In this document: piece by piece, positions 6,687 to 33,845 of the stretch
Layout: every line of letters begins with the position of its first letter
Position numbering within the stretch: position 1 is the stretch's first letter
Origin: Patescibacteria group bacterium
Lineage (GTDB): Bacteria > Patescibacteriota > Patescibacteriia > JACRDY01
Length of the DNA stretch: 64,000 bases
Direction of reading: 5' to 3'
Assembly (NCBI GenBank): GCA_041650515.1
Contig: JBAZLA010000001.1
Location: 18,710 to 82,709, forward strand
Translations under genes and position numbers: made by a program
Notes under the pieces: generated by a model
What the model saw: only the letters and a program-made list of their open reading frames with translations
Databases searched by the model: none
Told to the model about the DNA's origin: nothing

Positions 6687-6758
6687 AGACCCTGACAGGA
6701 TTCGAACCTGTGCGCAACCAGTACCAGTGGCTTGCTCTACCAACTGAGCTACAGGGTC
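6687..6758 (-). tRNA. tRNA-Thr, anticodon GGU
   Basis: Reverse complement folds as a cloverleaf. Acceptor GACCCUG/CAGGGUC, D-arm GCUC-AGUUGGUA-GAGC, anticodon arm AGCCA-CUGGUAC-UGGUU, T-arm ACAGG-UUCGAAU-CCUGU. 72 nt; no encoded CCA. Confidence 0.85.
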
Positions 6759-18467: not shown

Positions 18468-19790
18468 TTATTTGATTTCACAAACAGTATACAAATATTT
18501 ACCGCTCGGCGTTGGATCAATCTGATCAACAAAATTCCATTTAGTCCGGCAGTCAGCACCCATAAATAATTTAATTTTTTCTTCAATTCCTCGCATCTGG
18601 CTAGAGTTAGCCTCACCAACTATCTTTAACTCTACTAAATTATATTCTTTCTGGATTAATTGAAATTTTTTGATCCAATCTCTAAAAAATAACTGCTGAA
18701 TGATAAAATGAGTATGTTTTAATCCACCACTTTGAGTCTTAAAATAACCTAGGGTCCTACCAACAACATTATGTAAATTTAAATAAGATTTAGTCCGACT
18801 AAAATTATAATAAACCCCCGGTTGCGCTACGTCGCCCACTTCATATCGGATCAACGGCATCGAAAAATTATCCAAACAAGTAACAACTACTCTGCCCATA
18901 CCATCTCTCAAATCACTAATTTCAACTAGATGACGCCAGAAAAAAACTTGTAAATCAGAGTCGATTTTATCCTGAAAAGCAACTGCCCCTAATTCACGTG
19001 AACCGTACTGATTATAAACTGGACAATTGAAAGCCAGCTCAATTGACGATTTTATCTCCGGGTACAATGGACCAATACTAGTGACAATATATTTAGGAGA
19101 ATATAACTTGATATTATTAGCTGAAACAAATTTAGAAAATTCATATGTCGAGTCAACATAAGTCCAATAACTGACCGGTTTGAAGTTATTATTTAGCTCA
19201 ACTAATTCTTTCATTTTGTCAGAAGAAAAATTATAAGAATTTAAGAACCTCCTATTGTAAAGCCAATTTATGCAACGATCTCTAAGAGCTAAATTACCCT
19301 TGATAATATCCCGATCCGAGCCCCAAAGTTTAATTTCCTTGTCGCCTAAAGATTTACCTAATATTTCATTAAAATGAATCTTGGTAGCAATATTACTCTC
19401 ATCATAATAATGATCCTGTAAAAATTTTACCGGCTCACCAGTCGAACCGCCAGAAGTGTTTTGATAAAATTTTCTCTTTTGGTAGTCATCGGAATATAGA
19501 TTAGCTCCTTCTTGACGGATAATATCCTTAGTCAAAAGCGGTATCTGATTAAAGTTATCCAAATTAACCTGACCATTATCAACTACGCCGCTTTCAGACA
19601 AAATCTTATGGTAATAAGGAACGTGGTTATAGGCGTGAAGTAAAATTTCCTTTAATTTATCTTGCTGGTATTGCTGTTGTTTTGCCCCAGACATTTTTTC
19701 GAAACCATGCAGTAATCTCAAATTGGCCGGAATCTTGCTCCCGCTTAAATAAAACAAAAAGTAAATTATCGGCCTACGCCAGTTAAACAT
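18468..19790 (-). CDS. CapK/PaaK-family adenylate-forming enzyme (phenylacetate-CoA-ligase-like), paralog 1
   Basis: TSGGSTGEPVKF P-loop-like motif and PaaK-like length. Confidence 0.7.
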   Translation of the reverse strand: MFNWRRPIIYFLFYLSGSKIPANLRLLHGFEKMSGAKQQQYQQDKLKEILLHAYNHVPYYHKILSESGVVDNGQVNLDNFNQIPLLTKDIIRQEGANLYSDDYQKRKFYQNTSGGSTGEPVKFLQDHYYDESNIATKIHFNEILGKSLGDKEIKLWGSDRDIIKGNLALRDRCINWLYNRRFLNSYNFSSDKMKELVELNNNFKPVSYWTYVDSTYEFSKFVSANNIKLYSPKYIVTSIGPLYPEIKSSIELAFNCPVYNQYGSRELGAVAFQDKIDSDLQVFFWRHLVEISDLRDGMGRVVVTCLDNFSMPLIRYEVGDVAQPGVYYNFSRTKSYLNLHNVVGRTLGYFKTQSGGLKHTHFIIQQLFFRDWIKKFQLIQKEYNLVELKIVGEANSSQMRGIEEKIKLFMGADCRTKWNFVDQIDPTPSGKYLYTVCEIK

Positions 19791-28484: not shown

Positions 28485-29186
28485 CTATTTAATTAACCCC
28501 TGCTTTCTCAAATATATTTCCGCCCGTTTTAAGTCATCCGGATAGCCGATGGGCAACCAATAATCAGTTTGGACGATTTTAACTGGATAACCATTAACCA
28601 TTTTAACGACTGTTTGTGGCAAGCCAAATTCTTTACCATCCTTAATCGGCGCTAAACTGTATTTAAAAACATTCTCATCCAAAACATAAAGGGCAGAATT
28701 AACTAGGCACTTAGTCCCAGGCATAAGTTCGGTTTCAACAATATCAATCAAATTACCAGCCTCATTAATCATCAAGGCGCCATAATTACGCAATTCTTCC
28801 GCCACAACTTCTTTAGCTAAGATACAGCGCTCTTGCGCTAAACATCGAACGACATCTTTGGCTTGATAAATATCATCCCCCATCAAAACTAAAAAGCGGC
28901 CCTTCAGTAATCCCCGACAACGCCATAGAGCATCGCCGGTACCTAATAATTCTGGCTGAATAACATAACTAATCTGGCGACCATCATATTCATTACCAAA
29001 ATATTTTTTGAGCTGCTCACCCAAATAACCCACCACCAAAATTACTTCATCAATTTCTTTAGGTAATTGCTCAATACTGTAGGCTAACAATGGCTTGCCT
29101 TGCACCGGCAGCATTGGTTTGGGTACTTCGTAAGTTAGGGGCCGCATTCGTACACCGGCACCAGCGGCTAGAATCACTGCTTGCAT
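28485..29186 (-). CDS. Sugar-phosphate nucleotidyltransferase (NTP_transferase family)
   Basis: MQAVILAAGAGVRMRPLT...KPML motif. Confidence 0.85.
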   Translation of the reverse strand: MQAVILAAGAGVRMRPLTYEVPKPMLPVQGKPLLAYSIEQLPKEIDEVILVVGYLGEQLKKYFGNEYDGRQISYVIQPELLGTGDALWRCRGLLKGRFLVLMGDDIYQAKDVVRCLAQERCILAKEVVAEELRNYGALMINEAGNLIDIVETELMPGTKCLVNSALYVLDENVFKYSLAPIKDGKEFGLPQTVVKMVNGYPVKIVQTDYWLPIGYPDDLKRAEIYLRKQGLIK

Positions 29187-32100
29187 TATTTTACTACTAT
29201 ATTAATCAACCGCCCGGGAACAAAAATCACTTTAACTATTTCTTTACCAGTTAAATAACTTTTTACTTTTGTATCCACTAAGACTAACTCTTTAGCCTCG
29301 GTTTCGCTAATATCCGCTTTGACTTGAATATTGGTTCGCATTTTGCCGTTAATCTGGATCACCAAAGTGATTTCTTCTTCCTTAACTAACTCCGGATCAT
29401 ACTTGGGCCAGCTCTGGCAAAAAATACTTTTTTGGTGACCAAGCGTTTGCCACAACTCTTCGGCTAAGTGGGGCGAAAACGGTGCCAAAATTTTTAAAAA
29501 CAATTCCAAATTTTCCTGACTGACTTCTTTGGCTTCTTGAAAACCATTGACCAAAATCATCATGGCCGAAATCGCGGTATTATAGCGCATGTTTTCAATA
29601 TCCTCAGTAACTTTTTTGATTGTTTGATGAACTAATTTGTCGCCTTGTACCTTGCTACTTGTTACTTTTTCTTGAAGCAACCAAACTTTATCCAAAAACC
29701 GCCGCACACCATTAATCCCTTTGGTACTCCAGGGCTTGGTGTCTTCAAGCGGCCCCATAAACATTTCATAGAGTCGCATGCTGTCCGCGCCAAAATCGCG
29801 AACCACATCATCGGGGTTAATCACATTACCACGCGATTTGGACATTTTTTGGCCGTCTTCGCCCAAGATCATGCCTTGGTTGCGAAGTTTGAGAAACGGT
29901 TCAGCAAAATTAATATAACCCAGATCATACAAAACTTTGGTAAAAAACCGCGCATACATCAAATGCAGTACCGCATGTTCCGCTCCGCCAACATAGAGAT
30001 CAACTGGTAGCCATTTATTAATTTCTTTCTGGCTAGCAAACTCTTTTTTGTTCTCTGGATCAGTGTAACGGAAATAATACCAAGATGAACAAACAAAAGT
30101 ATCCATAGTATCGGATTCGCGTTTGGCGGGAGCACCACAAACCGGACATTTAACATTGTGAAATTTTTTAGAATTGACCAACGGCGACTCACCAGTTGGT
30201 TTAAAATCAACATCATCTGGCAATAAAACTGGTAAATCTTTCTCTGGCACCGGGACTAAACCCGAATTAGAGCCTAAAGAAAATTCTTCTAAAATTTCTG
30301 GGAAAGACAACATTCCCACCCGGCGATTAGAATGACCACGGTTATTAAATATTCTCACCCGGGCGCCCAAAGGCTGATAATCTTTTTCGACCGCTAACGG
30401 AATATAAGGATCGTTGTCTGAAAGATAAATAACAATTTCTTTGGCTAGTTTTTTTACTCGGACTAAATCAATTTTAGCTTGATTAAAATGCTTGGCCGCC
30501 TCAATACTATTCACCTCGGCACCGGCCGTTCGCATATTGCTCCAATTCTCCTCACTCTGAGACGGACCGGTCGGCGCGACTAAAATTAATTTTTCTATTG
30601 GTAAACCAGTTACCTGAATATATTGGCAAACAGCCGGGGCGCTCAGGCTGTGAGCGACGATAAAAATTTTATCTTCTTTTTTAAAATTGAGACTCTGCAG
30701 CGCCGCCACCCACTCGGCAATTGTCGGCACGCTAGCATTAGGCAAAATTGGAATTAAAACTTCATAGCCGCTATTTTCTAGTTGCTCTTTGAGCCAAGGA
30801 AACCAATTATCGTTAGCGTGAGCATTAAGACCGTGGGTTAATAAAACCTTAGGTTTTTTCTGAGCACAATGATCACAATAAATCATCGGGATGGGCGCGC
30901 CCCAATAGCGCTGGCGCGATACCAGCCAATCGCGAAGTTTGTACTGCGTTTTTAACTGACCACCGACTTTTTGCGTAATTTTTTTCTTGGCTTCTTCACT
31001 GGTTAAACCATCAAACTCGCCGGAATTAATCATGGTGCCAGTGCCAACCCAACACTTATAAGCTAAATCGCTACTTAAATGGCCATAAGCGCCCGGGCTG
31101 GCCATGCCAGATTCTATCGGACTGGCTGCCATTAAACTTTCTGGTTTAATCACTTCAATTATCGGCAAACTAAATTTTTTGGCGAACTCATAGTCTCGTT
31201 CATCGTGCGCCGGCACCGCCATGATTGCTCCAGTGCCATAGCCAGTCAAGACATAATCAGCCACAAAAATCGGTATTTCTTTATTGGTTGCCGGATTGAT
31301 GGCTCTAATACCCTTTAATTCCACACCGGTCTTGGCTTTAGCTAAATCGGTTCTTTCGATTTCATTCTTCTTTTGGGCCAACTTAATGTATTGCTCAACT
31401 TCTTCCCAATTTTTAATTGCCAATTTTAAATTATTAATCAAACCATGCTCTGGCGCCAGCACCATATAAGTTACGCCAAAAAGTGTATCCGGCCGCGTGG
31501 TAAAAACTTTAATTTTTACTGGTTCGCGAACCGCGGACAGCGAACCGCGGACAGCGAATTCTAACTCTGCTCCCTCACTCCGGCCGATCCAATTTTTTTG
31601 CATCAGCTTAATCGGCTCGGGCCAATCAATTGTATCCAAATCATTGAGCAGTCTATCAGCATACTGAGTCACTTTAAAAAACCACTGCTCTAGGTCTTTT
31701 TGCACCACTTCGTTGTGACAACGTTCGCATTGACCGGCGACCACCTGCTCATTAGCTAGTACTGTCTGACAAGAATTACACCAATTAACTTTGGCTTTCT
31801 TTTTGTAAGCTAAACCGTTTTTATAGAGCAACAAAAAAAACCACTGCGTCCATTTGTAATATGCTGGATCAGAAGTTTTAATTTCGCGTGACCAGTCATA
31901 ACTCAGGCCCAGCGACTGGATCTGGCGTCGAAAAGTTTCAACACTTTTGTCAGTCGTTATCTGTGGATGAACTTTTTGCTTGATGGCAAAATTTTCCGCT
32001 GGTAGGCCAAAAGCATCCCAACCCATCGGGTGTAAGACATCATAACCATTGAGTCGCAGATAACGGGAATAAATATCCGTCGCGGTGTAACCCTCAGGAT

Positions 32101-32251
32101 GACCAACGTGTAAACCAGCGGCTGACGGATAAGGAAACATATCCAAAATATATTTTTTCTTTTGGGGACTCTTGGGCGCTTGGTTAATTTTCTCCTTAGC
32201 CCAATATTTCTGCCACTTGGCTTCTATCTCTTGATGAATATACTTATCCAT
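29186..32251 (-). CDS. leuS: Leucyl-tRNA synthetase carrying an inserted alpha/beta-hydrolase domain (YdeN/RBBP9 family, about 210 aa) in the zinc-knuckle region
   Basis: HVGH (HIGH) motif, TTRPDT editing motif, KMSKS motif. The insert VLLTHGLNAHANDNWFPWL...IVAHSLSAPA...LVAPTGP lies between CDHC and VPVPEKDLPVLLP. Confidence 0.95.
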   Translation of the reverse strand: MDKYIHQEIEAKWQKYWAKEKINQAPKSPQKKKYILDMFPYPSAAGLHVGHPEGYTATDIYSRYLRLNGYDVLHPMGWDAFGLPAENFAIKQKVHPQITTDKSVETFRRQIQSLGLSYDWSREIKTSDPAYYKWTQWFFLLLYKNGLAYKKKAKVNWCNSCQTVLANEQVVAGQCERCHNEVVQKDLEQWFFKVTQYADRLLNDLDTIDWPEPIKLMQKNWIGRSEGAELEFAVRGSLSAVREPVKIKVFTTRPDTLFGVTYMVLAPEHGLINNLKLAIKNWEEVEQYIKLAQKKNEIERTDLAKAKTGVELKGIRAINPATNKEIPIFVADYVLTGYGTGAIMAVPAHDERDYEFAKKFSLPIIEVIKPESLMAASPIESGMASPGAYGHLSSDLAYKCWVGTGTMINSGEFDGLTSEEAKKKITQKVGGQLKTQYKLRDWLVSRQRYWGAPIPMIYCDHCAQKKPKVLLTHGLNAHANDNWFPWLKEQLENSGYEVLIPILPNASVPTIAEWVAALQSLNFKKEDKIFIVAHSLSAPAVCQYIQVTGLPIEKLILVAPTGPSQSEENWSNMRTAGAEVNSIEAAKHFNQAKIDLVRVKKLAKEIVIYLSDNDPYIPLAVEKDYQPLGARVRIFNNRGHSNRRVGMLSFPEILEEFSLGSNSGLVPVPEKDLPVLLPDDVDFKPTGESPLVNSKKFHNVKCPVCGAPAKRESDTMDTFVCSSWYYFRYTDPENKKEFASQKEINKWLPVDLYVGGAEHAVLHLMYARFFTKVLYDLGYINFAEPFLKLRNQGMILGEDGQKMSKSRGNVINPDDVVRDFGADSMRLYEMFMGPLEDTKPWSTKGINGVRRFLDKVWLLQEKVTSSKVQGDKLVHQTIKKVTEDIENMRYNTAISAMMILVNGFQEAKEVSQENLELFLKILAPFSPHLAEELWQTLGHQKSIFCQSWPKYDPELVKEEEITLVIQINGKMRTNIQVKADISETEAKELVLVDTKVKSYLTGKEIVKVIFVPGRLINIVVK

Positions 32252-33302: not shown

Positions 33303-33845
33303 TTATTCGGCTTTTTTGCTCAGGGTGATCCTCTTACACCCCTTGATGGCCGTGAGCCGATGGCGGCGTGGGATGGTCTTGGTGACCTTGTTTAGGACAG
33401 CCTCAAACTGCCCGGTGTCCCTGCCAACGCAACGGATAAAGGCCAGGTCATGATTCGCGACGAGTGTTCCAGCATCAACATCCAACACTGCCGCGAAAGT
33501 CAACACCGCCTCAAGCGGTATATCCTGCCAATCAGTAGATTCTCTCTCAATTGGAGAATCAGCTTCAAATTCCTCGGTGATGGTGGCGATCAAATCACCT
33601 CGAAGCACTGCCCAAAAAACAAAACCATCACCCAGTTTAGCTTCGATGCCAGCGTCGTCGAGAAGACGACAAAAATTTTCCACCTCTCGGAAGGTCAAAC
33701 TGCCGTACTTGTAACCCACTGACTTCACCGACGGCAAACCTTCCTGATCAGCCAAAAAGGCTAAAATCCTACGGCCGTGAGCTTTTGCCACTCTCGCCAG
33801 CTCTTCCAAATCCGCCAAACGGTAGTCTCTCCGATACTCTCTCAT
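33303..33845 (-). CDS. Hypothetical 180-aa protein; GC-rich, strong SD (AAAGGAGGA), own terminator
   Basis: Composition is clearly different from its neighbours. No family recognised. Confidence 0.45.
   Translation of the reverse strand: MREYRRDYRLADLEELARVAKAHGRRILAFLADQEGLPSVKSVGYKYGSLTFREVENFCRLLDDAGIEAKLGDGFVFWAVLRGDLIATITEEFEADSPIERESTDWQDIPLEAVLTFAAVLDVDAGTLVANHDLAFIRCVGRDTGQFEAVLNKVTKTIPRRHRLTAIKGCKRITLSKKAE

Follow-up and report, generated by a model that had tools for sequence, protein, structure and literature searches.

The leuS gene in a 64,000-nucleotide stretch of DNA from a Patescibacteria group bacterium (positions 18,710 to 82,709 of the forward strand of contig JBAZLA010000001.1, GenBank assembly GCA_041650515.1), the whole of which was analysed and is referred to here as the window, encodes a bona fide leucyl-tRNA synthetase (LeuRS) in which a bona fide member of the serine hydrolase family PF06821, of the YdeN/RBBP9 type, is nested in frame. 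An earlier note on this DNA had placed such a domain between the CDHC motif and the VPVPE...CPVCG segment of LeuRS, and this proved correct, because Pfam, a sequence search of the Protein Data Bank (PDB), a profile search, AlphaFold2 (AF2) modelling followed by Foldseek comparison and a break in the alignment with Thermus thermophilus LeuRS all agreed on it. The architecture is one case of a recurrent association between LeuRS and hydrolases across the Patescibacteria. The gene and its insert are located in the window as follows (aa, amino acids).

29186-32251, minus strand: leuS coding sequence, bacterial-type leucyl-tRNA synthetase, 1021 aa (open reading frame, TIGR00396 and T. thermophilus match)
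30263-30862, minus strand: 200-aa insertion, aa 464-663, YdeN/RBBP9-type alpha/beta serine hydrolase with short linkers (T. thermophilus alignment break, PF06821, AF2 and Foldseek)

Results

In the Pfam search, PF06821 (Ser_hydrolase) was matched by the whole protein with 66.8 bits (E=3e-18) and by the insert alone with 71.5 bits (E=1e-19), the latter over profile positions 1-168 of 172, at a gathering cutoff of 22. The PDB sequence search retrieved YdeN of B. subtilis (1uxo) with an E-value of 6.6e-15 and RBBP9 with one of about 1e-3, and the family profile search gave 1.5e-34 for YdeN and 2e-27 for RBBP9. The AF2 model of the insert alone, with a predicted local distance difference test score (pLDDT) of 92.8 and a predicted template modelling score (pTM) of 0.90, was a compact, lid-less alpha/beta hydrolase, and its top eight Foldseek matches in the PDB comprised YdeN (1uxo), RBBP9 (9fcr, 7oex and 2qs9) and the YdeN-like 3bdv, with template modelling (TM) scores of 0.65-0.77 as normalised by query length. 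Only alpha/beta-hydrolase families matched the insert; no homology was found to the known editing and trans-editing domains of aminoacyl-tRNA synthetases (CP1, INS/YbaK, AlaX and DTD), and no model of PADLOC or NCBIfam matched it.

LeuRS has lineage-variable insertions, and the segment could on that background be regarded as nothing foreign, being an expanded leucine-specific or ZN2 (second zinc module) segment or else an assembly or frameshift artefact. This is scarcely credible here. An expanded leucine-specific domain lacking hydrolase similarity, which the earlier note had considered as the outcome that would contradict it, is excluded by the PF06821 match, and the matches of the insert to YdeN and RBBP9 are strong in both profile and fold. 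The leucine-specific domain site is, moreover, another place (T. thermophilus 577-634 or 582-636, before KMSKS) and is empty in the query. As for an artefact, leuS is the sole long open reading frame (ORF) of the region and is uninterrupted, independent sources (ENA, NCBI and JGI) list the identical protein, on a 472-kb contig of a metagenome-assembled genome labelled 'Patescibacteria group bacterium', and the architecture recurs in more than 50 homologues of other assemblies.

The alignment with T. thermophilus LeuRS (1h3n) delimits the insertion. Residues 1-463 of the query correspond to T. thermophilus 1-443 and residues 664-799 to 443-581, with T. thermophilus residue 443 pairing with both query residues 463 and 664, which leaves a clean 200-aa break, directly after the first CxxC of ZN2, rather than the roughly 210 aa estimated previously. 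The linkers of the insert are AQKKP on the N-terminal side and SLGSNS on the C-terminal side. All of the motifs quoted in the earlier note are present, within 30134-30877; the span that it gave, 29830-30500, is displaced by about 360 nt, as it holds the C-terminal 80 aa or so of the insert together with the second zinc knuckle and KMSKS, and misses all three of the hallmark motifs that it had named (THGLNAHANDNWFPWL, AHSLS and LVAPTGP). The motifs lie as follows.

30866-30877, minus strand: first ZN2 knuckle CDHC (C459, C462), aa 459-462, one residue ahead of the insert, equivalent to T. thermophilus C439/C442
30791-30838, minus strand: THGLNAHANDNWFPWL, aa 472-487
30641-30655, minus strand: AHSLS, aa 533-537
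30563-30583, minus strand: LVAPTGP, aa 557-563
30242-30256, minus strand: VPVPE, aa 666-670
30134-30148, minus strand: CPVCG, aa 702-706
30137-30148, minus strand: second ZN2 knuckle CPVC (C702, C705), 39 aa past the insert, equivalent to T. thermophilus C484/C487

C459 and C462 are conserved in at least 90% of 55 aligned LeuRS, and the insert lies about 140 aa upstream of KMSKS. The earlier description of the site as the zinc knuckle holds in that a zinc module is interrupted; this module is ZN2 of the static core, not the mobile ZN1. In the figures of a study on N. gonorrhoeae LeuRS, the Zn2 element is shown as static and grouped with the aminoacylation domain (PMC9424281), and the mobile ZN (ZN1) domain gates activation and transfer in LeuRS (PMC13454842).

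The host protein scored 1044 bits over its whole length against the class Ia profile hidden Markov model (HMM) TIGR00396 (leuS_bact), at a cutoff of 548, and matched T. thermophilus LeuRS 1h3n with E=4e-232. Its further features are as follows.

32099-32110, minus strand: HIGH motif HVGH, aa 48-51 (motif scan)
31718-31780, minus strand: ZN1 zinc module CNSC...CERC, aa 158-178, unaffected by the insertion (motif scan)
30968-31597, minus strand: CP1 editing domain, aa 219-428 (PF13603, E=5.9e-62)
31073-31135, minus strand: disordered loop in CP1, aa 373-393, at the site termed S2 below (AF2 pLDDT below 50)
29834-29848, minus strand: KMSKS motif, aa 802-806 (motif scan)

All eight zinc cysteines are kept (ZN1, 158/161/175/178; ZN2, 459/462/702/705), and the T-rich motif of CP1, FTTRPDTL (250-257), and its VPAHDERD motif (346-353) are both intact, with T251, T252, D255, T256 and D350 invariant across the 55 aligned LeuRS. 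The full-length AF2 model reached a pLDDT of 87.8 and a pTM of 0.77, and the junctions of the insert were modelled well; residues 373-393 were the only stretch with a pLDDT below 50. This loop is about 18 aa longer than its T. thermophilus counterpart and is perhaps what is left of a lost insert. The alignment also revealed the absence of the leucine-specific domain, query residues 799-802 spanning T. thermophilus 581-637; the domain (T. thermophilus 582-636) is missing as well from all of the 120 relatives described below, in which a segment of 96-116 aa, mostly of 96 aa, leads from the second zinc knuckle up to KMSKS. To judge from its intact motifs, the host is apparently a working bacterial-type LeuRS, capable of leucylation and editing. 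Sequences of this kind, in public databases for years, carry the plain annotation leucine--tRNA ligase.

As the earlier note had proposed to check, the insert carries a Ser/Asp/His triad, with S535, D614 and H640 falling in the triad columns of the family. The codons, assigned by alignment to the family, are as follows.

30647-30649, minus strand: Ser535, predicted nucleophile in the elbow AHSLS
30410-30412, minus strand: Asp614, predicted acid (SDNDPY)
30332-30334, minus strand: His640, predicted base (NRGHS)

All 53 LeuRS-embedded copies and all 45 free-standing homologues have the Ser nucleophile. The Asp is present in 49 of the 53 embedded copies, and the aligned counterparts of D614 are the second D of YdeN 'SKDDQIVP' and D138 of RBBP9. 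For the His, the HMM alignment gave 48 of 53, the remaining five being trimmed gaps, and conservation was 100% in the MAFFT alignment. An HG oxyanion motif lies at 473-474. The elbow AHSLS differs from the family consensus GHSxG by two replacements, which make this copy slightly atypical even though both are small residues, and the query is the only copy with Ser in place of the Gly at position 537. As read from these alignments, the retention of the triad indicates that selection acts on the catalysis of the embedded hydrolases.

To place the insert among its relatives, we surveyed the 120 LeuRS most similar to the query, all organism-labelled ones of which are from Patescibacteria, also termed the candidate phyla radiation (CPR). 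Inserts of at least 100 aa were absent from 46 of them, single in 51, double in 22 and triple in one. A YdeN-type hydrolase was present in 52 of the 120, at four or more sites, one protein having two copies, so that related LeuRS exist both with and without the insert. The sites, in query numbering, are as follows.

S1, about aa 242, start of CP1: 22 hydrolase copies
S2, about aa 370, loop in CP1: 19 hydrolase copies
S3, aa 462, the ZN2 site as in the query: 11 hydrolase copies
S4, about aa 430, end of CP1: one hydrolase copy (P0108)

One fragment suggests a fifth site near aa 30. The inserts at S3 all share the junction CxxC-[AK]xxKx-beta1, and a single origin of the ZN2-site type is therefore suggested. 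Domains of other kinds were also found: S1 hosts Ham1 or an IS200-type Y1 transposase in some LeuRS, and S2 an ANT(2'')-like nucleotidyltransferase or NUDIX, 18 of the 31 S2 inserts other than hydrolases showing the canonical Nudix box.

Several of these proteins, among them P0048, P0086, P0059 and relatives, have two or three nested domains. P0048 (1311 aa) combines a 156-aa insert of no recognised family at S1 with NUDIX at S2 and the hydrolase at S3, P0086 is the protein with two hydrolase copies, and a clade of LeuRS of about 1200 aa combines Ham1 at S1 with the hydrolase at S2. The Y1 transposase (PF01797, E of about 1e-15) lies in frame at the start of CP1 in P0054 (aa 273-387) and P0066 (aa 263-368), with both the HUH motif (HVH) and the 'Y..NNP' tyrosine motif present; the element may have been domesticated or may have stayed mobile within an essential gene. 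Split-looking leuS was also encountered: P0170 is a leuS interrupted by several frame breaks that probably arose in assembly or sequencing, and locus L087 (4004-7041 of a 22.8-kb contig) holds a leuS with a ZN2-site hydrolase in five short ORFs, which probably reflects assembly frameshifts and not a true split.

An exhaustive HMMER search with the insert through 1.84 billion representatives found 1882 relatives. Among the best 150 of these, all 22 proteins of at least 450 aa were LeuRS or LeuRS fragments, and no other synthetase was present; the remaining multidomain hosts in the same 150 were at most 446 aa long and did not resemble LeuRS, and the single one in which a second Pfam domain was recognised, P0248, has NUDIX. 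Within these limits, the recurrent association is specific to LeuRS. A word-indexed search with the insert alone returned free-standing hydrolases only and missed the query protein itself, and is thus uninformative on fusions. A profile search with the ZN2 junction alignment gave seven matches, mostly fragments, and a contig profile scan with the same alignment yielded the hydrolase in 0 of 80 loci, ordinary LeuRS having saturated the scan. Free-standing fusions of a YdeN-type hydrolase with NUDIX occur outside LeuRS in P0020, P0022, P0026 and P0248 (305-367 aa); the gene of P0022 (locus L005, 6001-7005) adjoins a GNAT acetyltransferase gene, with integrase and TnpV genes a few kb off. The co-occurrence of hydrolase and NUDIX, both free-standing and inside LeuRS, hints at a shared pathway.

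The presence and absence of inserts are scattered across a neighbour-joining tree of the LeuRS core, and close relatives differ in this respect: P0050 (S2 hydrolase) and P0126 (no insert) are 92% identical, P0056 and P0073, whose inserts differ, 88%, and P0146 (S1 hydrolase) and P0112 (a different S2 insert) 93%. In P0126, the short S2 loop shows weak similarity to the central part of the hydrolase, which suggests that its insert was lost by internal deletion. The mean identity was 33-43% among hydrolase domains and 62-69% in the LeuRS core, indicating faster evolution of the hydrolase, and hydrolase divergence followed host divergence with r=0.84 at S2 and 0.43 at S3. The nearest relative of the query hydrolase is the S3 copy in P0047, with 53% identity, the best free-standing protein having 36%. 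The simplest reading is that the insertions are old, were inherited with the gene and were often lost; transfer between sites or alleles may also have occurred, being compatible with the crude trees.

Such patchiness among close relatives in a conserved essential gene is intein-like, and some LeuRS contain the transposase domain in frame, as described above. The insert could then be a decayed intein or selfish mobile insertion that is now an inert spacer, as the earlier note had entertained; we consider this very unlikely. Pfam detected no Hint, intein or endonuclease family, and the insert begins with Ala (AQKKP) and ends with Asn-Ser (GSNS) followed by Gly (GLVPV), having neither a Cys/Ser/Thr start nor a terminal His-Asn followed by Cys/Ser/Thr, so that the splicing residues are absent. 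The insert retains instead the conserved triad of an ordinary enzyme, in a fold modelled with high confidence. Neither flanking repeats nor target-site duplications were found at its borders, and its composition is unremarkable, with a guanine-cytosine (GC) content of 0.420 compared with 0.423 for the rest of the gene and a third-codon-position value (GC3) of 0.385, which is inside the range of the gene.

Elsewhere in the window, a 180-aa ORF at 33303-33845 (minus strand), for which no Pfam family is on record, adjoins an RNase HII gene and coincides with a patch of GC content of about 0.49-0.52, compared with 0.41 for the window. A 121-aa TTG-initiated ORF antisense to leuS at 29645-30010 (plus strand) is almost certainly due to chance. 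ARAGORN and Rfam found a single RNA gene in the window, a tRNA-Thr(GGT) at 6687-6758 (minus strand).

Discussion

With S535 as the nucleophile, D614 and H640 as its partners and HG at 473-474 as the oxyanion motif, the insert probably folds on its own on a static surface of LeuRS and is catalytically active. What such an activity would serve is a harder matter. In the reading that we put forward, to which we would give even chances, an active nested hydrolase tethered to LeuRS works beside CP1. The hydrolase would then supply LeuRS with a second hydrolytic activity, tethered beside the CP1 editing site, without replacing CP1, and its likeliest substrates would be small alpha-aminoacyl esters or amides, such as aminoacyl-tRNA or aminoacyl-nucleotide species, or the N-terminal hydrophobic residues of peptides. 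RBBP9, which provides the only functional information on the PF06821 family used here, is an aminopeptidase whose acyl-enzymes carry a single hydrophobic or aromatic amino acid and whose action depends on a free alpha-amine (PMC8866121), and it has been reported to activate valacyclovir, a valine ester prodrug of a nucleoside analogue (Shenoy et al, 2020, as cited in PMC7730578). This chemistry makes alpha-aminoacyl esters or amides, which are the kind of compound that a synthetase makes, the most plausible class; the assignment, by analogy with RBBP9, is tentative and rather doubtful.

Several observations weigh against a link of the hydrolase to leucylation. The CP1 editing site is intact, and therefore no proofreading gap is evident. 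Among the embedded copies, 91% have Gly at position 533 and 98% have it at 537, and because the elbow of the query departs from this rule at both positions, the query copy may be less constrained. No conserved acid of the embedded clade could be aligned with Glu108 of RBBP9, the anchor of the alpha-amine, and the loop at that position carries a query-specific insertion. The gene neighbourhoods of free-standing homologues had no leuS nearby. Because LeuRS pairs that are 88-93% identical differ in insert content, the insert is dispensable in some lineages. In addition, the CP1 sites S1 and S2 also host the unrelated NUDIX, Ham1, nucleotidyltransferase and Y1 transposase domains, and permissive loops therefore fit these sites as well as a LeuRS-specific function does.

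In the main alternative explanation, the insert is an active housekeeping hydrolase unrelated to leucylation and the LeuRS loops are permissive landing pads, an essential and constitutive gene supplying expression without a promoter of its own in a reduced genome. This has somewhat less than even prospects in our estimate and is nearly as likely as a hydrolase coupled to LeuRS function. It would account for the unrelated domains at the CP1 sites, including NUDIX domains whose box is intact in 18 of the 31 inserts, for the variable number of inserts, down to none of at least 100 aa in 46 of the 120 LeuRS, and for the differences between near-identical LeuRS; the position of ZN2 in the rigid core, outside the moving parts, and the hydrolase-NUDIX fusions outside LeuRS are also in accord with it. 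Permissiveness alone is, however, hard-pressed to explain why one hydrolase family occurs at four or more positions of LeuRS when no other large host was found among the 150 closest relatives of the hydrolase, and the embedded copies mostly cluster apart from the free-standing ones in a neighbour-joining tree, which is weak evidence in the same direction.

A broader picture may also be drawn, which we offer as an improbable speculation. Patescibacterial LeuRS would carry small-molecule hydrolases in modular fashion, with YdeN-type esterase/amidase, NUDIX, Ham1 and nucleotidyltransferase modules swapped among at least four loops, and the YdeN-type module would serve in cis as a new quality control or self-protection device, built on an alpha/beta hydrolase, that might clear aberrant aminoacyl esters or aminoacyl-adenylate-like species at the synthetase itself, including antibiotics that mimic leucyl-adenylate. 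It would be a proofreading or immunity device with no relation to any known editing domain.

Comparison with known systems

Synthetases are among the most conserved enzymes, and new catalytic domains in their bodies are rare; in the past, such domains pointed to fidelity mechanisms or moonlighting functions. A literature search on LeuRS combined with CPR or Patescibacteria, hydrolase or domain insertion found no description of such an insert, and LeuRS-nested small hydrolases are widespread in these bacteria and apparently undescribed.

The closest likeness is to YdeN of B. subtilis (1uxo) and human RBBP9 (2qs9, 7oex and 9fcr), with which the insert shares the fold and size of a lid-less alpha/beta hydrolase of about 185 aa, the Ser-Asp-His order and the NWFPWL and SxxDPY motifs. 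These relatives are free-standing, whereas the query copy is nested in another enzyme. The motif after beta5 reads LVAPT in the query, VSGF in YdeN and VSAY in RBBP9, the elbow of the query is AHSLS, and no equivalent of Glu108 of RBBP9 was identified in the query copy.

With regard to architecture, the CP1 domain of LeuRS, IleRS and ValRS and the INS domain of ProRS are, like the insert, hydrolytic domains nested in a synthetase body that fold independently and leave the host active. CP1 and INS are, however, ancient, universal in their lineages and not alpha/beta hydrolases, whereas the insert is lineage-restricted, easily lost and located in ZN2, and an editing role for it is no more than a hypothesis. 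The hydrolysis of aminoacyl esters is a possible chemistry in common with YbaK/ProXp, AlaX, DTD and Pth, but these act in trans, are not serine alpha/beta hydrolases and have no sequence or fold relation to the insert. The NCBIfam family NF040702 (isoleucine--tRNA ligase, N-acetyltransferase domain-containing) is likewise a class Ia synthetase with an extra domain that modifies small molecules, although both the host and the domain (GNAT) differ. Inteins also reside in frame in conserved essential genes and are patchy among close relatives; in contrast to them, the insert has no Hint domain or splicing residues and is an ordinary enzyme that is presumably kept in the mature protein.

The present case is noteworthy mainly for the pattern that it reveals, which is lineage-wide and involves multiple sites and multiple domains: four or more positions of LeuRS have taken up members of one serine alpha/beta hydrolase family, with the triad kept, in a phylum of ultra-small, host-dependent bacteria. 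If the hydrolase activity is linked to leucylation, synthetase-associated hydrolysis would gain a new class; otherwise, the case would be a clear natural example of the loops of an essential gene serving as expression platforms in reduced genomes, and would also map insertion-tolerant sites of LeuRS that are useful for engineering. The uncharacterised bacterial YdeN family would, in addition, gain its first functional context.

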